From the NCBI GenBank assembly GCA_035390665.1, contig DAOOUC010000003.1:10742-74741 (forward strand): DNA of 64,000 nucleotides. Direction: 5' to 3'. Under the pieces are notes generated by a model. The model saw only the letters and a list, made by a program, of their open reading frames with translations, was not told where the DNA came from and ran no database searches. Source of the DNA: an archaeon (GTDB lineage: Archaea > Iainarchaeota > Iainarchaeia > Iainarchaeales > CSSED10-239). Both the position numbers and the translations under genes were made by a program. Shown here piece by piece: positions 11,761 through 60,862 of this stretch; positions within the stretch are counted from its first letter, which is position 1; each line of letters begins with the position of its first letter.

Positions 11761-12871
11761 TTTCTTTCTTAATTCTCTCTCTAATTTTCTCATCTAAAGC
11801 AAATATTGTTTGAATGTTTGGATTTTTAGAATAGAATGTTTTATCCTCTAATATTTTTGAAAATATTTTAACAAATGAGTCTTTAGGTAAATTATTTTTA
11901 TAAAGCTCTTCAGCACAAACATCATAAACCATTTGGAAAAGAATTGGATAACTGCCACCTTTTTTTATTGATAAATAAGCTAATTTAAGAGTTGCTATTT
12001 CTTCAAAATTTATCTTTTTAATATTTATATTGATATTATCTTCTAATTTGTTATTTTCTTTTATTTGAGAATTGTCAAGATAATATAAATTATATATTGA
12101 TTCTTTATTATTATCTGTATAATTAAAAACAGTACATCCGTTCTTTAGTTGTAATATCAAGTTTATTTTTTCTGTATTTGACTTATAGAAATCAAAATTA
12201 TCTAATTCTAAATTATATAAGTTAGACATTACAATTAAATGTCTAGACAACCACATTTTATTTTTAAAATAAAATATTTTTTTAAATTCAGATAATGTTT
12301 TAGAGGGATTTGTATAATTTGTTAAATTTTCTTTATCTTCCTTTGTATCATAATCTATAAGTATTATTTTATCAATTTCATTTAATTTTTTAGTATTTGA
12401 AAATAATGACATAGATTGAAATTGAGGGGTAATATAATTTAATTCAATTCCTTTGTTTTTTGCTTCATTAATGATTATCTTTCCAGAATATAAAATTGGT
12501 TCAAGATTAAGTAATCCAATGTCTTTATATTCTCCGATAGATGCTAATATTAATTTCACAGAATCAATTCCAGTAAAATCAGAAATTATCAAATCACAGT
12601 CTGTAATTTTTAGGAAAGAAGTATATTGAGAATAATCGTGATAACATTTAATATTAAATTCTAATTCTAATTTTTCTGCCAAATCTTTATTAGGAAAGAA
12701 AATAACAGATGGTTGTAATTCTTGAATTTGCTTTTTAAATAAATCAAATTGTTTTTCATCATTACAAAGTAGTGCTGAAATCTTATATTTTTGATTATGT
12801 CTTTTAAAAAAATCAATAATCTCTTGAGATTTTTTTCTTTGACTTCCTAAAATTAGCATTTTTTTTATCAT
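11747..12871 (-). CDS. Hypothetical protein with distant DXR (IspC)-like layout but degenerate motifs
   Basis: N-term ILGSQRKKS (vs DXR LGSTGSIG). Segment DLIISDFTGIDSVKLILASIGEYKDIGLLNLEPILYSGKII...ITPQFQSM parallels DXR ...IVGAAGL.PTLAAI.AGK.IALANKESLV...LPVDSEHSA, but the catalytic residues are not conserved. Confidence 0.35.
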   Translation of the reverse strand: MIKKMLILGSQRKKSQEIIDFFKRHNQKYKISALLCNDEKQFDLFKKQIQELQPSVIFFPNKDLAEKLELEFNIKCYHDYSQYTSFLKITDCDLIISDFTGIDSVKLILASIGEYKDIGLLNLEPILYSGKIIINEAKNKGIELNYITPQFQSMSLFSNTKKLNEIDKIILIDYDTKEDKENLTNYTNPSKTLSEFKKIFYFKNKMWLSRHLIVMSNLYNLELDNFDFYKSNTEKINLILQLKNGCTVFNYTDNNKESIYNLYYLDNSQIKENNKLEDNININIKKINFEEIATLKLAYLSIKKGGSYPILFQMVYDVCAEELYKNNLPKDSFVKIFSKILEDKTFYSKNPNIQTIFALDEKIRERIKKEIKKK

Positions 12872-12950
12872 CTTTTTCTTTCTTAGTTATAAAAAATAAA
12901 AGAAAAAAAGAGAAATAATATCTCTTAATTTCTTACTTTATCAAAAAGAT

Positions 12951-13241: not shown

Positions 13242-14651
13242 TTAATCAAGAGGAATAACGCATCTAAACCCAATCGAATCTGATTTATAACTTGGCGCCC
13301 ATCTTAAATTCATTGCAAAAACACCTGATGCATTTTCATCAAAATGTGTTCCACCCCTTACTATTGCGTGAACATTTGAATTATATGCAAGTCCTGAATT
13401 TGCTTGTCCTGGAGCAATATAAATTTTTCCAACACCTTGTTCTGAATCATAATCATTAAATGGTTTTATTTGACTATATGTTAAAGAACCCGATCTTGCC
13501 AAATTTGTAAATTCATACCAATCTCTTTCAAATAAATCTTCAAATCCTGGAGATCCATGCTGTACACCGCCACTATCATTTCCTTTATTATTTAAATCAG
13601 GATAATCCTCGCAGGTTCCATCACAACTTTCTATAATTGTTAAATCTACCCATTCTGCTAAATTTCCAGAGAAATCCCATATTTCTTCGCCATTAGATAA
13701 AACTAACTTAGCAAGTTCATTTCTATTATCTCCATAATCAATTAAACCCTTTAAATAGGATGCAGAACTATCTATTCCTACATTTCCTTTTTTTAATGAC
13801 CCTATTCCTGTTATTCCGCTATCCCAATTAGTTGAAACTTGTTCAATATTTCTTGCAATTGTCATCCATTCATCATTTGTTATTAAATGTGCACCAGAAT
13901 TCTCACAAATTTTTTTTACTGCACATAAATTTAAAATGGTTTCTGGAGGATCAGAAATTTTGTTTTCTAAAACCGCCATTGAACCATTAATTTCATTTCC
14001 TTCTTCACACATTCCATCAGAAATATATCCATCATTTATTCTAGCTTCATATTTTTGAACACAAAATTCAGAAGTATTATAATTTGGATTCCCTGGAACT
14101 GTAATATATCCATCTGGACAGCTTGTTGTTACTATTTCAGGATTATAACTTTCACAATATCTAAAATCAAAATCTTGTGAATTAACTTTTAATTCTATAT
14201 ATTTATTCTCAATGGTATATAAATTTAAAATAAAAGAACTTGATGGAAAACAAGCAATTGGAATTATAGTCAAATCTCCGCTATTTATTTCAATTTGTGG
14301 ATTTAATGCAATTCTTTTTGTAAGATATTTAGCATCCTGCAATTGATTATCAACTATAGTATATCCTTTAATAACTAAATCTTTTGTACTTGTATTTTGA
14401 ATTAAAACAGATCTATTTATTGCTTTTTTTACAAATATAAATCCTGTTATATCATCTTTTTCTGCTATTATATCTTTAGATGAAGACAATGTTGTATTTG
14501 TAAAATTTGTTCCCCAATTTATTATTATAGTAACTATAACTACACAAATTACTACAAGTAAAATAATTGCAATAATAGGAGATATTGCTTTTTCTTTTGT
14601 TCTCATATCTTTCTTTCTTTTTTTATTTAATTTATTTTTTTTTAAATTCAT
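13242..14651 (-). CDS. Pilin-like (class III signal peptide) surface protein with C-terminal formylglycine-generating-enzyme/SUMF1-like domain
   Basis: N-term basic stretch then KAISPIIAIILLVVICVVIV (archaeal prepilin-type signal). C-term HLITNDEWMTIARN, GNLAEWVDL, VRGGTHFDEN, SIGFRCVIPLD (FGE-sulfatase domain hallmarks). Confidence 0.6.
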   Translation of the reverse strand: MNLKKNKLNKKRKKDMRTKEKAISPIIAIILLVVICVVIVTIIINWGTNFTNTTLSSSKDIIAEKDDITGFIFVKKAINRSVLIQNTSTKDLVIKGYTIVDNQLQDAKYLTKRIALNPQIEINSGDLTIIPIACFPSSSFILNLYTIENKYIELKVNSQDFDFRYCESYNPEIVTTSCPDGYITVPGNPNYNTSEFCVQKYEARINDGYISDGMCEEGNEINGSMAVLENKISDPPETILNLCAVKKICENSGAHLITNDEWMTIARNIEQVSTNWDSGITGIGSLKKGNVGIDSSASYLKGLIDYGDNRNELAKLVLSNGEEIWDFSGNLAEWVDLTIIESCDGTCEDYPDLNNKGNDSGGVQHGSPGFEDLFERDWYEFTNLARSGSLTYSQIKPFNDYDSEQGVGKIYIAPGQANSGLAYNSNVHAIVRGGTHFDENASGVFAMNLRWAPSYKSDSIGFRCVIPLD

Positions 14652-36424: not shown

Positions 36425-37144
36425 ATGTTAAATAATTTATTAAATGGATTTAAAGTTTTTGTAAATAAAAAAACCCCACTTATTGTTTTATTATTTGCTT
36501 TTTCTTTCTTTGGACTCAATTATCTATCTAATGTTTTATTTGAAGAATTAGCAATAGGTATTAGTCTTAAAGAATATCCTTCTTTTCTTGTAAATTACTA
36601 TAGATTTGATTTATTTTGGTTTATCTTAGCAATGATTGGTTTATTCTTTTTATCTAATTTAGGAATATATTTAATTGCAAACAGTATTACAAAATCAAAT
36701 AAAAAAATAAAGACAGATGTCTTTAATTGTTTAACATATACTATTTTAACAGCTATCTTCTTTTTATTTATTGGATTAATAGGATATTTTTCTGTTTTGC
36801 CAAGTGGCTATTTTTCTATAATAATGTTAATTATTTTAGGAATAATCGCTCTTGTTGTTTCTTTTATAACTTTCTTTGGTATTTTGTTTCTTCCAGTATC
36901 AAATACTATCAAAGATAGTTTAAGAAATTCCTGGGGATTTATTAAAAAAAGATTTTGGGCAATTGTTTTAATGATAATTATTCTTGGAATAATAAATGTA
37001 GCAATTAGTTATGCATTTGAAATTATTTATACAAGAATAAAAGATTCAGAAATAATTAGTTTAATACTATTTATATTTACAAATACTATAATAACAATGT
37101 ATACTACAAGTGTTTTTTCTTCATTTATTAAGAAGAAAAAATAA
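36425..37144 (+). CDS. Polytopic membrane protein, hypothetical
   Basis: About 6 hydrophobic helices. Confidence 0.35.
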   Translation: MLNNLLNGFKVFVNKKTPLIVLLFAFSFFGLNYLSNVLFEELAIGISLKEYPSFLVNYYRFDLFWFILAMIGLFFLSNLGIYLIANSITKSNKKIKTDVFNCLTYTILTAIFFLFIGLIGYFSVLPSGYFSIIMLIILGIIALVVSFITFFGILFLPVSNTIKDSLRNSWGFIKKRFWAIVLMIIILGIINVAISYAFEIIYTRIKDSEIISLILFIFTNTIITMYTTSVFSSFIKKKK

Positions 37145-37299: not shown

Positions 37300-40330
<3,031 letters not shown>

Positions 40331-40687: not shown

Positions 40688-42484
40688 TTAATTAGGAGAA
40701 TATAATAATCCTTCAACTTTTGTTGGTGTTTCAATTACTGGATCTCCTGAATCAACACCTAATTTTCCTTTGTCATTGCTTCCCCAACAATAAAGTTCTT
40801 TTATTTTTCCACTCCCTGGATCAACAATTGAACAAGTAAAATTATATCCTAAAGAAGTGTTTGTTTGATTAATCATATTTTTCATTGATTCTGGGACATT
40901 ATGTGAAAGTTCATCTTTTGATTCTAGTCCTAATTGCCCAAGGTTATTACTTCCCCAGCAACTTTGTGTAAATCCTTCTTTCCCATAAATTGCACAACTG
41001 TGAGTTTTTCCAACATCTAACATTTGAATATTTGTTAAACCAACAACAGGGACAAATACTGGAATATTTAAATCTCCTGCTCCAGAACCAAGTTTCCCGA
41101 ATTCATTATTTCCTGCACAAAATGCAGAGTTATTTTCTTGAATAAATAAACAAGAATGGTTATCTCCAACAGATACTCTCATGGATATTGGAGCATTTAT
41201 TTGTACTGGACTTAGTTGTGAAATAGTATCTTCAGTTCCTAATTGCCCAAAAGTATTATCTCCCCAACACATAACCTTCCCATCGGTTAATACTGCACAA
41301 GCATGAGTAATTCCTATATCAACACTTATAACATCTGATAAAACAAAAGTTGGAGAATCTTTATGATCTTTATCTCCAACTCCTAATTGTCCATAAGAAT
41401 TATCACCCCAACAATATAATTTATTTGCAGAATCAATAGCACAAGAAGAGTTTCCTCCAACAGCTATACTAGTCACTTCTCCAAATTCAGGAATAACTAC
41501 TGGTATTAAACTCAAACTTTCTGGAGTTTCAAAACCAAGTTGTCCATAAGAATTATCACCCCAACACATTACATCTTTTGTGTCTAATAATGCACAAGAA
41601 TGAGAAAATCCAATACTTACTTGTATTGCAGTATTAATCTCTAAAACTAAAACTGGTTTATTACTTAAGTCATTAGTTCCGTTTCCAAGTTGGCCTTTTT
41701 CATTATTTCCCCAACAATTAATTTTACCCCCCTCTAACAAAACACAAGCATGATTTTCTCCTAAGGATAACTGTAATGGTTCATCTATTAAATAATTGTA
41801 AGTAATAATATCACTATCTATATAATTTTCTTTTATTGCAATTAATTTTAAGGTAGTATCTTCTTGAATTAATATTGCACTACCATTATATTGATTACTT
41901 GTTTCAGAATCGGGGTTTGTCCCATCTGTTGTATAATAAATCATATCATTTTCATTATCTGGAGTCAAAGTAATTTCTGTATTTAATGGAAGATATCCTG
42001 AATCTAAAGAGGCGCTAGGATTTCCGACTTTTGGCTTTGTTTGTGGAGCTTTTGTAATAGTAGGTAAAGAAAAATAATTAGTTGAATTGTTTAAAACTAT
42101 AGAAACCTTTGTTCCGGTCAATACTGTATCTATTGGAATAATAACCGATGCTCCTGTTATTATCTCAATTTCAGAATCCAAAGTTATTTCTTCTGTATTT
42201 CCTTCATTGTCTGAAATTGTGTATCCTGTTATTGTTACATTATTTGGCCCTAAATTTTTAATATTTAAATTACCTGTTTTTTCTATTGTTGCAGCTACAA
42301 AAGAATTTACTACAATTTGATTTTCTATATATTTCTTAGTATCTAAAATTCCATCTGTTTTGTCTAAACTTTTATTTGTAAATTGATTTCCCCAACTTAA
42401 AATTGCAACAGTAATTATTGTTGCAACAACAACTAATAATATTACTGTTATAAGCGTTGACACAGCTTTAAATTTATTTTTCAT
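40688..42484 (-). CDS. Pilin-like (class III signal peptide) surface protein with RCC1-repeat beta-propeller
   Basis: N-term KAVSTLITVILLVVVATIIT. At least six repeats of the type CWG(D/N)N..GQLG (RCC1 signature), e.g. CWGDNSYGQLG, CWGNNEKGQLG, CWGSNNLGQLG. Confidence 0.65.
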   Translation of the reverse strand: MKNKFKAVSTLITVILLVVVATIITVAILSWGNQFTNKSLDKTDGILDTKKYIENQIVVNSFVAATIEKTGNLNIKNLGPNNVTITGYTISDNEGNTEEITLDSEIEIITGASVIIPIDTVLTGTKVSIVLNNSTNYFSLPTITKAPQTKPKVGNPSASLDSGYLPLNTEITLTPDNENDMIYYTTDGTNPDSETSNQYNGSAILIQEDTTLKLIAIKENYIDSDIITYNYLIDEPLQLSLGENHACVLLEGGKINCWGNNEKGQLGNGTNDLSNKPVLVLEINTAIQVSIGFSHSCALLDTKDVMCWGDNSYGQLGFETPESLSLIPVVIPEFGEVTSIAVGGNSSCAIDSANKLYCWGDNSYGQLGVGDKDHKDSPTFVLSDVISVDIGITHACAVLTDGKVMCWGDNTFGQLGTEDTISQLSPVQINAPISMRVSVGDNHSCLFIQENNSAFCAGNNEFGKLGSGAGDLNIPVFVPVVGLTNIQMLDVGKTHSCAIYGKEGFTQSCWGSNNLGQLGLESKDELSHNVPESMKNMINQTNTSLGYNFTCSIVDPGSGKIKELYCWGSNDKGKLGVDSGDPVIETPTKVEGLLYSPN

Positions 42485-53235: not shown

Positions 53236-54966
53236 ATGTATTTAAAACTTAAAGAAAATAGTATAGACAAAGATTTATTTTATAACTGTTATAAAAATTT
53301 TGATAAAAAAGAGTTAGTTGTATTTAATTGTAAAAACTGTAATGATGCCCCTTGTATTTTAGCTTGCCCGCAAAAAGCTATATCTAAACAAAAAAATGGA
53401 ATTGTTTTTATTGATTCAAAAAAATGTATTGGCTGTAAAAGTTGTGTGTTTGCTTGTCCAGAAAATGCAATTATTTTTAAGAATAATAAAGCTACAAAAT
53501 GTGATTTATGTTTAAATAATTCATTTATCATGCCATGTTATTATGCTAATAGAGATGTATTAGAATTCTGTGAAAATTTAGATTCTGAAACACACACAAT
53601 AATCTTAGAAAAATATTTAGGATATATAATTACAAAGGAAAAAATAATCCAAACCCTATCGTTAGATGGAAAGGTTATAAAAACAGATAATAAAACAATG
53701 TATTTACTTAAATATCAACAGTTATCCAATGATGAAATAAAAGTTATTAATGAAATACTTGATTCTTATAAATTCAAAACCGAAGAATATAATCAAAATA
53801 TTAAATTAAATCTAGAAACAGAACTAATAGAATATTGTTATAAAAACAATATAGAATTAGATAAAGACCAATTCTCTTATTTAATTGATCTTGCCATAAA
53901 TAATTTATTTGAATTCGGGCCATTAACACATTTACTTAATGATTTTAATCTGGAAGAAATTGCAATAATTGGGATAAATCTCCCTGTATTTGTATATCAT
54001 AGAATTTATGGCTGGCTAGAAACTAATTTAAAATATATTTCTGAACAAAAATTAAAGGATATAATAAATAAATTAGGTTGGAATACAAACAAATATATTA
54101 CATTGAAGAATCCAATAATGGATGCAACTTTAAAAGATCACACTCGACTTAATGCTATAATTTCTCCAATAACAGAAAGTGTTTGTTTAACCATTAGAAA
54201 ATTTTCAGAAAGACCAATATCTATTTTTGATTTATTAAAATATAAAACTATCTCATCTAAAGCTCTTGCTTTTCTTAAATTAGCATTTTTAACTGACGCT
54301 AATATTTTTGTTGTTGGTAATACTGGTTCTGGTAAAACTACTACTTTAAATGCATTATTGGATTTTATACCAAAAGAGGAGCGCCTTATTCTTGTTGAAG
54401 AAGTTCAGGAAATTAATGTTACACATCCACACAAGGTGTCAATTTTAGTAAATAAAGAATTGGGAATTACTATGGAAAATCTAATAATAAATACACTTAG
54501 AATGAGACCAGATAAGGTCGTGATTGGAGAAGTAAGATCTAGAGAAGAATCAAATGCATTAATTGATTCTTTACTTTGTGGTCAAGCTAAAGGGACATAT
54601 ACAACTTTTCATGCACAATCTGCAAAAGATGCAACCTTGAGGTTTCTTTCTTATGGGATTTTAGAAAATGATATTACTGCAATAGATCTAATCATAACTC
54701 AAAGAAGATATAACGAATATATTAATGACAGCAATTTTAAGGATAAAAGAAAAATATTTGAAATCTCTGAAATATTTTATGAGAATAATAAACTAAAAAT
54801 CAATAAAATATTTGAATATTGCCCAGATAAAAAAGAATTATTATTTAAAAACTACCCAAATAAACTAATGCAAAAATTTCAACTTGCTTTTGGGATAAAA
54901 ACCAAAAAACAATTATTGGAATTAATAGATATAGAAGAAAAGAGAATTCTATCTAAAAAAATTTGA
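53236..54966 (+). CDS. Type II/IV secretion-family ATPase (TadA/CpaF/VirB11-like) with N-terminal di-cluster [4Fe-4S] ferredoxin domain
   Basis: N-term CKNCNDAPCILACP and CIGCKSCVFACP. Walker A VVGNTGSGKTTTLNALL. Asp/His boxes RMRPDKVVIGEVRSREE...GQAKGTYTTFHAQSAKDA. Confidence 0.75.
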   Translation: MYLKLKENSIDKDLFYNCYKNFDKKELVVFNCKNCNDAPCILACPQKAISKQKNGIVFIDSKKCIGCKSCVFACPENAIIFKNNKATKCDLCLNNSFIMPCYYANRDVLEFCENLDSETHTIILEKYLGYIITKEKIIQTLSLDGKVIKTDNKTMYLLKYQQLSNDEIKVINEILDSYKFKTEEYNQNIKLNLETELIEYCYKNNIELDKDQFSYLIDLAINNLFEFGPLTHLLNDFNLEEIAIIGINLPVFVYHRIYGWLETNLKYISEQKLKDIINKLGWNTNKYITLKNPIMDATLKDHTRLNAIISPITESVCLTIRKFSERPISIFDLLKYKTISSKALAFLKLAFLTDANIFVVGNTGSGKTTTLNALLDFIPKEERLILVEEVQEINVTHPHKVSILVNKELGITMENLIINTLRMRPDKVVIGEVRSREESNALIDSLLCGQAKGTYTTFHAQSAKDATLRFLSYGILENDITAIDLIITQRRYNEYINDSNFKDKRKIFEISEIFYENNKLKINKIFEYCPDKKELLFKNYPNKLMQKFQLAFGIKTKKQLLELIDIEEKRILSKKI

Positions 54967-54972
54967 ATAATT

Positions 54973-55686
54973 ATGTTGTCTAATAACATTAAAATGCTTT
55001 TGATTTTAGGGTTAGTAATAACTATATTATTTTTATTATTAAATTTCATATATCCTTTAGATTTAATATTCTTAATTTATATTGAATTCATTTTTGTTGT
55101 TATTTATTATTCGGTTTGGTTTTTTATAAAACGGATAAAAGAACAAGATGAGAAAACAAGATTGTTAAGAGAACTTCCTTTTTTTCTTAATAGTCTTGCT
55201 AGTGATCTAGATAAAAATATACCTTTAAAATTATCTTTAGAAAATCAAGCTAAAAGAAATACTTTGATTGGAACAAAAGTCAGTTTAGCACTGTTTCTTG
55301 TTTCAAATAAAGGATATACTTTACAATCAGCATTAGAAAATATATCTAAAAATAATATTGAATTAGAGCGAGTAATTTATCAAATAATAGACATTTTACA
55401 TAGTGGGACTAAAAATAAATCAGAAGTTTTTAGAATATTAGCTAATAATTTTCTAGAGCAACAAAGCACGGCCACGAAAAATTATTCCACCAAATTAAGT
55501 TTCTTATCTTTAGTCTTTGTTGTTGTGTCCGCAATTGTCCCCGCTTTATTTTTAATGTTTTTCTTAGTTGGCAGTAATTTTTTTGAGATTGAAATTTCGG
55601 TGGTTGGCATTATTTTAATAACAATAATTTTATTTCCAATCATTGATATGTTCATATTATTATTTATGAGAGCAAATCTTGTTTAG
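54973..55686 (+). CDS. TadB/TadC-like (T2SS-F domain) pilus platform membrane protein, first of a split pair
   Basis: N-terminal TMs, cytoplasmic helical domain RELPFFLNSLASDLDKNIPLKLSLE..., two C-terminal TMs. Confidence 0.55.
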   Translation: MLSNNIKMLLILGLVITILFLLLNFIYPLDLIFLIYIEFIFVVIYYSVWFFIKRIKEQDEKTRLLRELPFFLNSLASDLDKNIPLKLSLENQAKRNTLIGTKVSLALFLVSNKGYTLQSALENISKNNIELERVIYQIIDILHSGTKNKSEVFRILANNFLEQQSTATKNYSTKLSFLSLVFVVVSAIVPALFLMFFLVGSNFFEIEISVVGIILITIILFPIIDMFILLFMRANLV

Positions 55687-55698
55687 GGGCAATAAACA

Positions 55699-56517
55699 AT
55701 GAAAAAATATTTAATTATTATTTTTAATATTTTATCTATCTTTGTTTTTATTATCTATAAAATTAATATTTTCCTTTCTTTAATTTTTTTAATTGTTGGT
55801 AATATTATAATTATTTTATTAAATAAATTATATTGTAAATATATTATAGATCTTGAGCGAAAAAAAATAGAATATGCACTTTTAGATGAAATTTTAGTAT
55901 TATCAAGTCAACCAAGAATTAATGACCTTAATCAATTACTTACAAAATTGTCTCATTCCAATAACAAACTAATATCTAAAGAATTTAGAATAATTCTTCA
56001 TAAAATTGAAGAAGGACATAGTGTTAAAGATGTACTTTTTGTATTTTCAAAAAAATATAACTCTGAAATATTAGATCGCTTTCTTGATTTATTATATGGA
56101 TCTATTACCACTGGTACTACATCTGTTGTTGATTATCGTTCTTTTGCCAATAATTTTTTAAAGTCTAAGCAATTAATTGACGAAAGAAATTCAGTTCTTT
56201 TAATTCAAAAATATACTATTATTTTTGCAGGGTGTTTTATTGTACCAGGAATATTAGGAATTGTAATTTCTTTAGTTAACAAATTAATTGGAAACTTAGA
56301 TTTTTCATTAATTGATGCCTCAACCAAATTAGCAAGTAATACAATGTTATTTTCTACTTGTTATTATTGTTCTATTATTTATATTATAGAATATGTATTC
56401 ATTTCTTCAATTTATTTAAGCATGTTAGAATCAGATATTAAAAAAACTATAATTTATATTATTTTCTTAATGCCAATTTCTATAATTATATTTTTTTTAA
56501 GTTCTATTCTTATTTAA
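55699..56517 (+). CDS. TadC-like (T2SS-F domain) pilus platform membrane protein, second of the pair
   Basis: Same architecture: ALLDEILVLSSQPR...FRIILHKIEEGHSVKDVL... then TMs. Confidence 0.55.
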   Translation: MKKYLIIIFNILSIFVFIIYKINIFLSLIFLIVGNIIIILLNKLYCKYIIDLERKKIEYALLDEILVLSSQPRINDLNQLLTKLSHSNNKLISKEFRIILHKIEEGHSVKDVLFVFSKKYNSEILDRFLDLLYGSITTGTTSVVDYRSFANNFLKSKQLIDERNSVLLIQKYTIIFAGCFIVPGILGIVISLVNKLIGNLDFSLIDASTKLASNTMLFSTCYYCSIIYIIEYVFISSIYLSMLESDIKKTIIYIIFLMPISIIIFFLSSILI

Positions 56518-56556: not shown

Positions 56557-57156
56557 ATGATTGAGAATATATTTGCATATTTTTTAAATAATTTAAATTA
56601 TTTTACAATTGCTTTATTAATGACAATAGAAAGTTCATTTATTCCTTTTCCTTCAGAAGTTGTTATGATTCCTGCAGGGTTTTTAGCTTATCAAGGTAAA
56701 TTAAATATATTTCTAGCAATTTTTTCAGGGATTATTGGTTCTTTACTTGGCGCACTTATTAATTACTATATTGGATTGAAATTAGGGCGTAAATTAATTA
56801 CCAAAAATAAGAAATTTCTTTTTATTAATATTAAACATCTTGACTGGTCTGAAAAATATTTCAAGAAACACGGGGGTAAAACTACTTTTTTTTGTAGATT
56901 GATTCCTGCTGTAAGGCAATATATTTCAATACCTGCGGGTTTTGCAAAGATGGATATTAAACAATTTATTATTTTTACATCTCTAGGCGCAGGAATTTGG
57001 GTTATTTTCTTAACTTTTTTAGGATATTTTCTTGGATTGTCTGTTGCTCAAAATGTTGCACATATTTTTAATTATATAATGTATGGTCTATTAGGGATAA
57101 TTGTTTTAGTGTTTGGTATTATAATAGCCTATAAGTTCATAATTAGAAAACATTAA
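56557..57156 (+). CDS. DedA-family membrane protein
   Basis: ESSFIPFPSEVVMIPAGFLA and the GxxxV/RLIPAVR re-entrant motif typical of DedA/Tvp38. Confidence 0.7.
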   Translation: MIENIFAYFLNNLNYFTIALLMTIESSFIPFPSEVVMIPAGFLAYQGKLNIFLAIFSGIIGSLLGALINYYIGLKLGRKLITKNKKFLFINIKHLDWSEKYFKKHGGKTTFFCRLIPAVRQYISIPAGFAKMDIKQFIIFTSLGAGIWVIFLTFLGYFLGLSVAQNVAHIFNYIMYGLLGIIVLVFGIIIAYKFIIRKH

Positions 57157-59212: not shown

Positions 59213-60862
59213 TCATTCAGGCAAAGGATCTTGAGTATTATTTCTTAGATAAGGATATGTTATTCCTTCTTCTATTCCCCAGATATCTGTAAAATTCCAA
59301 TCAGTAAACGTATCTTGTGTTTTCATTTCTGTGGTTGTTTTTGGAACTCCTCTCCCATCATTATCTGATTGCCCAGAAGTATTTGTATCATATATAATAT
59401 AATATATTCGAGAAATATCTCCGCCGCCCAATAAGCCCCCATAATTTTCATTACCGATAACTGATCCTGCAGAATAAGAACTAAAAATAATTCCTTCAGG
59501 TAATCGTATAGGAGGAGGTGTTAACTCCCCATTATACCCCACAAGTCCACCTACATAATTATTACCACTAACATTACAAAAGGAATAAGAATCAGTTATT
59601 CCCCCCCTATTATATCCAACTAACCCACCAATATCATTTCCTTCAGAACTAACAATTTCACCAATAGAATAACTATTGATAATATCCCCCCTCTTATATC
59701 CAACTATCCCACCAACATCGCTCTCTGAACTAATTATTTTAATATTAGAATAACTATTTTCTATATTTCCATAACCTAATCCAACTAATCCACCACAATC
59801 ACTTCCACAATAAATATTCCCATTAAAACTACTGGAATTTATATCTCCACCATCTGAATTAAATCCCGCTCTATTATTTATTCCTATTAATCCTCCAATA
59901 GCAGAATTACCTGATATAGTTCCAGAAGAATGTACATTAGAAAGTATTGAAAACCACATAAAGTTTCCAACAATACTACCTACATTATTTGACCCTATAA
60001 TATTTACATCAGTCAAAATTAAATTTTTTATTTCAATCATTTTACTTTCTGTATATTTAATATATCCAAATAAACCAATATTATCGTTCTCTGGTAAATT
60101 AATATATAAATTACTTATTGTGTAATTATTTCCATTAAAACTTCCTTCAAAACCACTATCATCAGAACCTATTGGTTCAAAGCCCTCTCCTTCATTGTAT
60201 GGACTAACACCAAGATCTAGGTTTTTTCCAAGTTTATAGTGCTTGCCAAGCCCATTTCTAACATTATTAAGATCATCAACACTACAGATTACAAATGGAT
60301 CTTCTTCAATTTTTCCACTTCCATTATCTGTTATTCCTAAACAAACAGGATCTGGTATTTCTGTATTATTAAAACAAGAATTGGATTGATAATTACTATT
60401 GTTAATTGGAACAGTAATATATTTCCCATCACTAGTTATTAAATTTACTTTAAAAGATTCATCTGGATTACAAATAATTGGAACAGAAACCATTGATCCA
60501 GAATTTAAATTGACGGGGTCATCTAAAGTTATTGGCTTATTTAATATTTCGCTATCTTGTGGTGCAACAATTTCATATTTTGTAATTATTACATCTTTAT
60601 CGGATAGATTTTTTACAATATAGCTTTCTGGTTGAGGATTACTAGTATATATATACCCTGTTAATGTTGGATCTTCTTTATAAATTTCTTGAGATTTATC
60701 TAATGAATTACTAGTGGTTATTAATCCCCAAGAAAGAATAGAACCTACAATTATAACTGCAATTACAAGTAAAAGAATTACAGAAATGATTGGAGAAAAC
60801 GATTTCTTATTTAAATCTCTCAAATCTTTTATTCGTTTAGATTTAAATTTATGTTTTCTCAA
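59213..60862 (-). CDS. Pilin-like (class III signal peptide) surface protein with GLUG-motif beta-helix repeats
   Basis: N-term KKSFSPIISVILLLVIAVIIV. Repeats AIGGLIGINNR, CGGLVGLGYGNI, DVGGIVGYKRGDI, DIGGLVGYNRGGI, NYVGGLVGYNGEL, ENYGGLLGGGD. Confidence 0.6.
   Translation of the reverse strand: MRKHKFKSKRIKDLRDLNKKSFSPIISVILLLVIAVIIVGSILSWGLITTSNSLDKSQEIYKEDPTLTGYIYTSNPQPESYIVKNLSDKDVIITKYEIVAPQDSEILNKPITLDDPVNLNSGSMVSVPIICNPDESFKVNLITSDGKYITVPINNSNYQSNSCFNNTEIPDPVCLGITDNGSGKIEEDPFVICSVDDLNNVRNGLGKHYKLGKNLDLGVSPYNEGEGFEPIGSDDSGFEGSFNGNNYTISNLYINLPENDNIGLFGYIKYTESKMIEIKNLILTDVNIIGSNNVGSIVGNFMWFSILSNVHSSGTISGNSAIGGLIGINNRAGFNSDGGDINSSSFNGNIYCGSDCGGLVGLGYGNIENSYSNIKIISSESDVGGIVGYKRGDIINSYSIGEIVSSEGNDIGGLVGYNRGGITDSYSFCNVSGNNYVGGLVGYNGELTPPPIRLPEGIIFSSYSAGSVIGNENYGGLLGGGDISRIYYIIYDTNTSGQSDNDGRGVPKTTTEMKTQDTFTDWNFTDIWGIEEGITYPYLRNNTQDPLPE

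Follow-up and report, generated by a model that had tools for sequence, protein, structure and literature searches.

A predicted polyferredoxin domain on the motor ATPase of an archaeal type IV filament module

In a 64,000-nt stretch of an Iainarchaeales genome (GenBank assembly GCA_035390665.1, contig DAOOUC010000003.1, positions 10,742 to 74,741; hereafter the window), three adjacent genes at 53236-56517 encode a secretion-type ATPase and two small membrane proteins. At its N terminus the ATPase carries an iron-sulfur (Fe-S) domain predicted to hold three [4Fe-4S] clusters. The domain architecture is real, conserved and apparently undescribed, and the machine that bears it is of a known kind. 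Evidence from sequence, profiles, fold and synteny converges: the three genes are very probably the minimal core of a Tad/Epd-like machine that assembles archaeal type IV filaments. A preliminary description, made from the sequence alone, had proposed three co-directional genes here, and the open reading frames (ORFs) match it exactly (Table 1). Because the gaps between them are only 6 nt and then 12 nt, the genes are almost certainly a single transcription unit.

The ATPase, which is identical to NCBI HOW29410.1 in public collections, matches Pfam T2SSE (PF00437) over amino acids (aa) 266-490 (E = 8e-36; 123.9 bits against a curated cutoff of 24.9). It contains the Walker A motif GNTGSGKT (aa 361-368), the Walker B/Glu segment RMRPDKVVIGE (aa 422-432) and the His box TFHA (aa 457-460), all invariant or near-invariant in an 84-sequence alignment, so that the VirB11/CpaF/FlaI-family boxes first noticed in this gene are indeed present. 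The nearest solved sequences by phmmer are afGspE (2OAP; 171 bits, aa 154-562), FlaI (4II7/4IHQ; 123 bits) and CpaF (8RKD). An AlphaFold2 model built from 84 homologues (predicted local distance difference test 92.9, predicted template modelling score 0.78) returns 2OAP, 4II7 and 8RKD as top folds in Foldseek, with E between 1e-27 and 1e-34, and about 1e-33 to 1e-34 for afGspE and FlaI. In this model the ATPase proper has the two-domain fold, with a three-helix and PAS-like N-domain followed by a RecA-like C-domain. The protein is of the hexameric FlaI/GspE2/CpaF-type class, hexamer formation and ATP hydrolysis being predicted from sequence; a KaiC/RecA-type ATPase, which the preliminary description had named as one way in which it could be wrong, was rejected in favour of the T2SSE class.

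Within this class the protein has no close named counterpart. The top NCBIfam model is the FlaI equivalog NF058587, at 201 bits against a cutoff of 550, followed by the TadA-family model TIGR03819 (146 bits, cutoff 373) and a VirB11 model, also at 146 bits. Because these scores fall far below the equivalog cutoffs, we regard the ATPase as a superfamily member that is the orthologue of no named machine.

Two side observations concern the motor domain. A JGI copy of the contig (3300010429 Ga0116241_10000770; L055, protein P0001) differs by 4 nt in 21.7 kb, at window positions 54317 and 54331-54332, within Walker A codons (11082 and 11096-11097 in L055), and at 59937. Three G-to-T changes in that copy turn the Walker A sequence GNTGSGKTT into VNTGSFKTT (G361V, G366F); the window and five other cluster members spanning the site have the canonical motif. 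Either the copy comes from a strain with a dead motor, or its G-to-T changes arose in assembly or sequencing. Separately, a representative search drew in proteins with two or three Walker A motifs each (P0121, 1156 aa; P0132, 1605 aa; P0122, P0172, P0173 and P0213), in which two to three T2SSE units stand in tandem without Fe-S motifs. Such polypeptides may represent motor oligomers joined covalently, or else fusions made in gene calling.

The cysteines of the N-terminal domain fall into three predicted ligand sets. Two motifs, C32-x2-C35-x4-C40-x3-C44-P and C64-x2-C67-x2-C70-x3-C74-P, had been read in the preliminary description as a two-cluster ferredoxin. Four further cysteines, C18, C89, C92 and C101, are conserved in an alignment of 88-93 homologues and supply a third set; C89, C92 and C101 are placed in an invariant K-C-D-L-C motif. 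The sets would be C32, C35 and C40 with C74; C64, C67 and C70 with C44; and C89, C92 and C101 with C18. Both motifs and the Fe-S nature of the domain therefore stand, and the count does not: 12 cysteines predict three clusters, ancestrally four. Across 30 diverse homologues 11 of the 12 are invariant, and C32 is at least 90% conserved.

Profiles and folds agree on what kind of domain this is. Fer4_11 (PF13247) matches aa 31-94 with 38.4 bits (curated cutoff 26.2), several further Fer4 Pfam models also exceed their own cutoffs, and the NCBIfam models DsrO, DmsB and TtrB match in part. Pfam thus returned both domains that had been anticipated at about aa 25-90 (Fer4) and 300-560 (T2SSE). The modelled domain shows the two-lobed polyferredoxin fold over ~112 aa, and its closest folds and sequences are exclusively electron-transfer subunits: HycB3/HycB4, the AOR/WOR5 small subunits, PsrB, ArrB and FdnH. 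Two of the closest solved relatives form filaments. In distant fusion homologues (35-43% identity) we found 16 cysteines in the four-group HycB/DmsB-type pattern; the window protein has cysteine at 12 of these 16 positions, giving three complete sets and not four, the lost ancestral cluster being that of group I C1-3 and group IV C4. The domain is thus predicted, from these sequence patterns, to be a HycB/DmsB-type polyferredoxin with three [4Fe-4S] clusters and an ancestral complement of four. We tried two simpler identities and rejected both. A minimal 2x[4Fe-4S] ferredoxin of ~55 aa does not accommodate the third ligand set or the ~112-aa fold. A zinc ribbon, the other alternative raised at the outset together with non-conservation of the cysteines, is at odds with their conservation in orthologues, the CP-terminated ferredoxin motifs, the multiple Fer4 hidden Markov models, the polyferredoxin fold and the co-loss of whole clusters.

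In ferredoxin folds each cluster takes three cysteines from one group and its fourth from a partner group, as in the structures of FdnH and NarH. We scored cysteine loss over 93 fusion homologues. All 16 cysteines are kept in 31 sequences; 46, including the window protein, lack group I C1-3 together with group IV C4; four lack group II C1-3 with group III C4; and two lack group III C1-3 with group II C4, the remaining ten being N-terminal truncations or irregular patterns. Because the main losses each remove exactly one cluster's ligand set, it appears that the cysteines really do ligate [4Fe-4S] clusters, and such whole-set loss is strong evolutionary evidence, at the level of sequence, for cluster binding. 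The clusters of FdnH are reportedly ordered I-IV-II-III. If this order applies here, the cluster lost from the clade was therefore a terminal one, and a contiguous three-cluster chain was left. The pairs P0101/P0156 and P0041/P0043, by contrast, are without the ligands of an internal cluster. Conservation of the domain (37-64% identity across divergence bands) exceeds that of the linker, the helical N-domain and the C-tail, and is lower than that of the catalytic core.

Homologues without the Fe-S domain indicate where it was joined. These start at an LGW/LGY motif, which corresponds to aa 127-130 of the window protein, and some begin directly with 'MLGW'. On this basis, aa 1-112 and a linker helix (117-126) were grafted directly onto an otherwise normal ATPase N terminus.

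The fusion recurs widely. Among the best 120 matches from 5.8 billion clustered proteins, 88 have the Cys-rich N-domain, which makes at least 88 clusters at the 90% identity level; among the best 150 representatives at 50% identity it is present in at least 23. The sequences come from independent assemblies in NCBI, JGI, ENA and Logan, under the names Ca. Iainarchaeum, Diapherotrites, Micrarchaeota or plain 'archaeon'; JGI auto-annotation calls several of them 'CpaF family ATPase/ferredoxin', and precomputed annotations of homologues list PF27713 'UCP018868'. When GTDB genomes were scanned with one protein, only 4 of the loci returned were close, and the remaining 50 were Fer4-less Bathyarchaeia ATPases or unrelated one-peptide matches. 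An assembly error, frameshift or mis-called start joining separate ferredoxin and ATPase genes is effectively refuted by this recurrence in independent assemblies, and we give it a negligible chance. The gene is also one uninterrupted ORF with a conserved N terminus (MYLK...), the structural model is confident through the domain junction, and the odd substitutions of the JGI copy fall in Walker A rather than at that junction.

In every fusion locus examined (the window, L001-3, L056/57, L058 and L060-63), the ATPase gene is followed by two half-size T2SSF genes. Close relatives also share flanks encoding a phosphoribosyl pyrophosphate (PRPP) synthase, a PCC-domain protein and a VTT protein, and more distant ones share DUF192, prenyltransferase and PAC2 genes. 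In L058, L060, L062 and L066 the order is (prenyltransferase)-DUF192-ATPase-T2SSF-T2SSF-PAC2 with or without the Fe-S domain, and the DUF192 and PAC2 (proteasome-assembly-chaperone-like) proteins may be unrecognised accessory components. The Ca. Iainarchaeum metagenome-assembled genomes L056 and L057 have an extra 327-aa gene at 11889-12872, between the Fe-S ATPase and the platform genes, which has no Pfam match and is absent from the window.

Several relatives lack the domain altogether. The orthologous locus L066 is without it in the same neighbourhood (DUF192, two T2SSF genes, PAC2), and the Micrarchaeota loci L064 and L065 are both Fer4-less and unsplit, with a single T2SSF platform gene of 558-562 aa (6404-8080 in L064, 6477-8165 in L065). 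It follows from L064 and L065 that the platform split and the Fe-S domain both vary within this ATPase lineage. We found no stand-alone ferredoxin gene upstream of the Fer4-less ATPase in L064, L065 or L066 that would correspond to a split form of the fusion. In a crude neighbour-joining tree of the ATPase core, which carries no support values, Fer4-positive and Fer4-negative sequences interleave, which suggests a patchy distribution. Together with the absence of the domain from L066, this interleaving points to an accessory module that was repeatedly gained or lost.

The two genes downstream of the ATPase had been described as half-size T2SSF proteins, and both prove to be T2SSF paralogues. 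Half 2 matches T2SSF just above the cutoff (25.5 bits against 25.2). Half 1 is sub-threshold by itself (19.1 bits), and six of six orthologues from related loci match (best E = 3.5e-12); the two halves are paralogous over their cytoplasmic domains (hhalign probability 96.7%, E = 4e-10). Each has an N-terminal transmembrane (TM) segment, a ~120-aa cytoplasmic helical domain and C-terminal TM segments, two of them in half 1. The two proteins jointly stand in for one FlaJ/PilC. Split platforms are known elsewhere: two tadC-like genes per locus were described for archaeal clades 1/2 (PMC4858521), DPANN 'system 1/4A' loci have them (bioRxiv 10.64898/2026.04.22.720090), and Cuniculiplasma has CdiPFa/b (PMC12448462). 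With an ATPase gene directly followed by two single-domain T2SSF genes, the locus has a Tad/Epd-like core. Judging from the sequence of the ATPase, which scores well under the bacterial TadA/CpaF equivalog cutoff, the module is Tad-like in its working and its ATPase is not a TadA orthologue. Nor is it an archaellum operon, since archaellins, FlaF/G, FlaH and a single FlaJ are replaced by two half-size T2SSF genes and housekeeping neighbours.

Class-III-signal-like N termini occur in exactly three ORFs of the window, those at 13242, 40688 and 59213 that had already been singled out. They share a pilin-like N-domain of ~150 aa (31-38% identity, with a conserved SWG) and, with their diverse C-terminal parts (Table 1), look like a family of modular 'pilin-adhesins'. 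Distances between these genes and the module are 2.7, 10.8 and 38.6 kb. Reliance on in-trans pilins is common among ATPase/TadC modules (PMC4858521), which makes it plausible to assign the three proteins to this module, and plausible that the module assembles them. To call it the host-attachment apparatus of an episymbiont, as was first suggested, is speculation; the names of homologues and the shared synteny indicate no more than a DPANN (Iainarchaeota-like) affinity.

Taken as a whole, we explain the locus as a type IV filament core with a regulatory polyferredoxin on its motor, an explanation that we consider just as apt to be right as wrong. The task of the motor would be to pull class-III-signal pilins out of the membrane and build them into a polymer, and its likely substrates are the three pilin-adhesin fusions whose genes lie elsewhere on the contig. 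We tentatively propose, at slightly under an even chance, that the Fe-S domain acts as an accessory input of redox, O2 or Fe-S status to the motor. The oxidation state or integrity of the clusters would be set by O2 or reactive oxygen species (ROS), by the reduced-ferredoxin pool or by Fe-S supply, and would in turn control hexamer formation, platform docking or ATPase turnover. Pilus and adhesin display would then be switched by redox conditions in these anaerobic, metabolically reduced archaea. Such an input is favoured by the dispensability of the domain in the orthologous locus L066, by the absence of a conserved redox partner nearby (no gene for one turns up repeatedly beside the module across the loci examined), and by the loss of an internal cluster in some lineages, which would break any wire. 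It is also favoured by the N-terminal position of the domain, where archaeal type IV filament ATPases carry subsystem-specific interaction or adaptation domains (bioRxiv 10.64898/2026.04.22.720090). By analogy, the arrangement would parallel the MshEN domain that feeds cyclic di-GMP (c-di-GMP) into bacterial MshE/PilB-type ATPases.

A number of observations weigh against this explanation. On the filament side, the link to the pilin-adhesins rests only on co-occurrence on one contig. In five related loci the 8-10 kb on each flank of the module contain no class-III-signal ORF, by a strict regular expression that may miss divergent pilins, and the 64-kb window holds no candidate for a multi-TM prepilin peptidase of the GxGD/A24 type; its unannotated 7-TM ORF at 36425-37144 has no Pfam match. 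One relative, L058, has a second T2SSE/T2SSF locus with a Fer4-less type IV pilus ATPase. On the Fe-S side, three or four clusters in a chain exceed what a sensor usually needs and are a hallmark of electron-transfer subunits, and the closest solved relatives of the domain are all electron-conducting.

Some of the filament-side observations would also suit a module that is no pilus assembler, that is, a bindosome-like display, DNA-uptake or protein-export device, with the pilin-adhesins served by another ATPase elsewhere in the genome. No pilin or peptidase genes adjoin the module (pilins having been sought in the relatives and peptidases in the window), at least one relative's genome has the second locus just mentioned, and the ATPase matches the NCBIfam bindosome ATPase model BasE, if weakly (105 bits against a cutoff of 1000). 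All such devices, however, use this same core to polymerise class-III-signal proteins, so that the proposal is mostly a filament renamed. Moreover, the 64 kb contain no T2SSE/T2SSF set besides the 53236-56517 module, and the only three class-III-signal proteins are encoded in that stretch too. We therefore rate this device as very improbable.

The main rival to a regulatory input is a structural or docking role like that of ABCE1/Rli1, in which the clusters would rigidify an N-terminal module for protein contact, with no redox signalling and with O2 sensitivity as a side-effect. Such contact might be made with a KaiC-like partner, for example, with the split platform or with neighbouring subunits. 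ABCE1/Rli1 is an ABC ATPase of archaea and eukaryotes with an N-terminal 2x[4Fe-4S] ferredoxin-like domain that works in ribosome recycling, and it sets a precedent for clusters with a mechanical role and ROS sensitivity on an ATPase. Much of the evidence cited above fits here too: variable N-terminal domains of archaeal type IV filament ATPases have been proposed as interaction interfaces, L066 does without the domain, lineages tolerate the loss of one or two clusters, an internal one included, and no redox partner is conserved nearby. Against this, 8-16 ligands and an oxygen-labile cofactor are costly for a purely structural role in reduced genomes, and the non-Cys positions are only moderately conserved (29-60%), so that no strongly conserved docking surface is evident. 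We consider a docking role unlikely, if the foremost competitor.

The electron-transfer character of the domain suggests a further possibility, namely that the three- or four-cluster chain carries electrons as the function of the machine itself. The chain could connect the cytoplasmic ferredoxin pool with the platform or filament or with a partner oxidoreductase, or electrons could travel from subunit to subunit around the hexamer, with its 18 clusters, and ATP hydrolysis might be coupled to their passage. The fold and best sequence matches fit such a conduit, HycB3/HycB4 belonging to the filament of hydrogen-dependent CO2 reductase (HDCR). Most members retain the cluster number and the canonical spacing, and the cluster lost in the clade would be a terminal one, if the FdnH order holds. 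Yet no donor or acceptor gene is conserved beside the module in the examined loci, the missing internal cluster of P0101/P0156 and P0041/P0043 would break the wire, and the orthologous locus gets by without the domain. A need for electrons is not known in any type IV filament motor, and the organisms look like DPANN archaea with a minimal metabolism. We accordingly hold the conduit to be improbable. Marginally less probable again is a bolder pair of readings, in which polyferredoxins ringing the hexamer (18 clusters; 24 ancestrally) form either an electron pathway coupled to the filament machine or a true redox switch. The former could be an ATP-gated relay that links the ferredoxin pool of the cytoplasm with the platform, with the filament or with an attached host; with the latter, the redox or O2 state of the host could decide whether a DPANN symbiont attaches to it or lets go.

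Few prokaryotic nanomachines are as widespread as type IV filament motors, which are known to be regulated by nucleotides (c-di-GMP) and by partner proteins. We know of no motor ATPase of the type IV filament family with Fe-S clusters. If an input role is true, a three- or four-cluster domain would provide a direct route from redox, oxygen or iron status to filament and adhesin display in DPANN archaea, for which cell-cell attachment is considered central. The domain would also give a handle on the puzzle of why AapX, considered below, is necessary for Aap pilus assembly. Were the electron-pathway or redox-switch reading true, the protein would represent a functional class not seen before among type IV filament motors and might explain the AapX requirement in Sulfolobus Aap pili. 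The architecture should surprise a specialist in pili or the archaeal cell surface, even though we infer the function of the Fe-S domain, and the fusion protein is small, soluble and confidently modelled.

Table 1. Coordinates in the window of the module, its domains and the three candidate substrates
Feature	Coordinates	Strand	Remarks
Fe-S-fused type IV filament assembly ATPase, 576 aa	53236..54966	+	ORF; T2SSE and Fer4_11 above cutoff; AlphaFold2 model; identical to HOW29410.1
N-terminal polyferredoxin domain, aa 1-112	53236..53571	+	three predicted clusters; fourth, ancestral cluster lost
Linker helix, aa 113-126	53572..53613	+	helix 117-126 in AlphaFold2 models; least conserved region
ATPase proper, aa 127-576	53614..54966	+	Walker A at nt 54316-54339; phmmer matches to 2OAP/FlaI/CpaF
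Platform half 1, TadB/TadC-like, single T2SSF domain, 237 aa	54973..55686	+	6/6 orthologues match T2SSF; paralogue of half 2
Platform half 2, single T2SSF domain, 272 aa	55699..56517	+	T2SSF 25.5 bits; same position in related loci
Pilin-like N-domain with GLUG repeats, candidate in-trans substrate	59213..60862	-	putative link to motor
Pilin-like N-domain with CHB_HEX_C and seven-blade RCC1 beta-propeller	40688..42484	-	putative link to motor
Pilin-like N-domain with Cys-rich FGE-sulfatase-like C-terminal domain	13242..14651	-	putative link to motor

The genes flanking the module are housekeeping genes. Upstream, on the opposite strand, lie those for PRPP synthetase and a PCC-domain protein, and downstream those for a VTT/DedA-family protein, a tRNA, DUF63 and Trm5. 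The VTT/DedA-family membrane protein gene (56557-57156, + strand) begins 39 nt past the module and keeps this position in the close relatives L002, L003, L056 and L063 and not in distant loci; it may be co-transcribed with the module. A KaiC/ArlH-family ATPase gene (PF06745) lies ~8 kb downstream on the parent contig, at L055 21139-21731, ~0.4 kb past the 3' end of the window, and a second KaiC/ArlH-family gene, in L060 (5037-5951), lies upstream of the fusion ATPase at a distance of 1 kb. KaiC-like ATPases have been proposed as type IV pilus modulators (PMC4858521). The window has a GC content of ~26% and encodes a complete archaeal 23S rRNA, which stands alone at 37334-40314 (- strand). Because no 16S or 5S rRNA was detected across the whole 64 kb, the rRNA genes are unlinked.

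In the searchable literature, with subscription-only papers outside its scope, we found no description of an Fe-S-fused T2SSE ATPase, and '4Fe-4S' occurs together with 'T2SSE' in no paper of the literature searched. The 2016 census of archaeal type IV pili does not mention ferredoxin or Fe-S (PMC4858521), and the 2026 survey by Sivabalasarma and Albers, which stresses the variable N-terminal domains of type IV filament ATPases, reports no Fe-S domain on them (bioRxiv 10.64898/2026.04.22.720090). The novelty claimed in the preliminary description therefore stands for the fusion itself. It does not extend to the link between Fe-S proteins and archaeal pili, for which AapX is a precedent (PMC11178785) and the only one described in the literature searched. 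Encoded in the Sulfolobus aapX-aapE-aapF operon, AapX is annotated as an Fe-S oxidoreductase and is essential for the Aap pilus, with its function unknown (PMC11178785; PMC11178815; bioRxiv 10.64898/2026.04.22.720090). It resembles the window protein in its Fe-S annotation, in adjoining a type IV pilus ATPase/platform pair and in being needed for pilus assembly, but it is a separate, membrane-anchored protein, unfused to the ATPase, and its homologues have an FAD-binding domain.

Among motors, afGspE of A. fulgidus (2OAP) and FlaI/ArlI of S. acidocaldarius (4II7/4IHQ) share the N-domain, the RecA-like C-domain and the Walker and His boxes with the window ATPase, but unlike it have no Fe-S domain. 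FlaI also works with one two-domain FlaJ and with FlaH, FlaX and archaellins, none of which is found at the window module. Bacterial Tad (CpaF/TadA-TadB-TadC), archaeal 'system 1' (Epd) and DPANN '4A' likewise combine an ATPase with two half-size platform genes, though no ferredoxin domain has been reported on their ATPases; in contrast to Tad loci, the window module has no adjacent Flp-type pilin, TadZ or dedicated peptidase. The HycB/DmsB-type subunits (HycB3/4 of HDCR, 7QV7; AOR/WOR5, 9MQX_E/6X6U_B/8C0Z_F; PsrB, 2VPW_B; ArrB, 6CZ7_B; FdnH, 1KQF_B) are stand-alone proteins within oxidoreductases, whereas the window domain is fused to a motor, has one cluster fewer and has no oxidoreductase partner nearby.

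Inputs and metal sites on related ATPases offer further parallels. The MshEN domain provides sensory input through an N-terminal extension of MshE-type ATPases (PMC5013675, PMC4624772), and the tetracysteine Zn site of EpsE/GspE is a case of a Cys-bound metal within the T2SSE ATPase family (PMC5061722). Their ligands are c-di-GMP and Zn, the Zn site lies in the C-domain, and both folds are unrelated to that of the window domain. ABCE1/Rli1, which is ROS-sensitive (PMC3442406), differs in belonging to an unrelated ATPase class, in having two clusters against three or four and in its ribosome-recycling role, and shares with the window protein an N-terminal ferredoxin-like domain on an ATPase.

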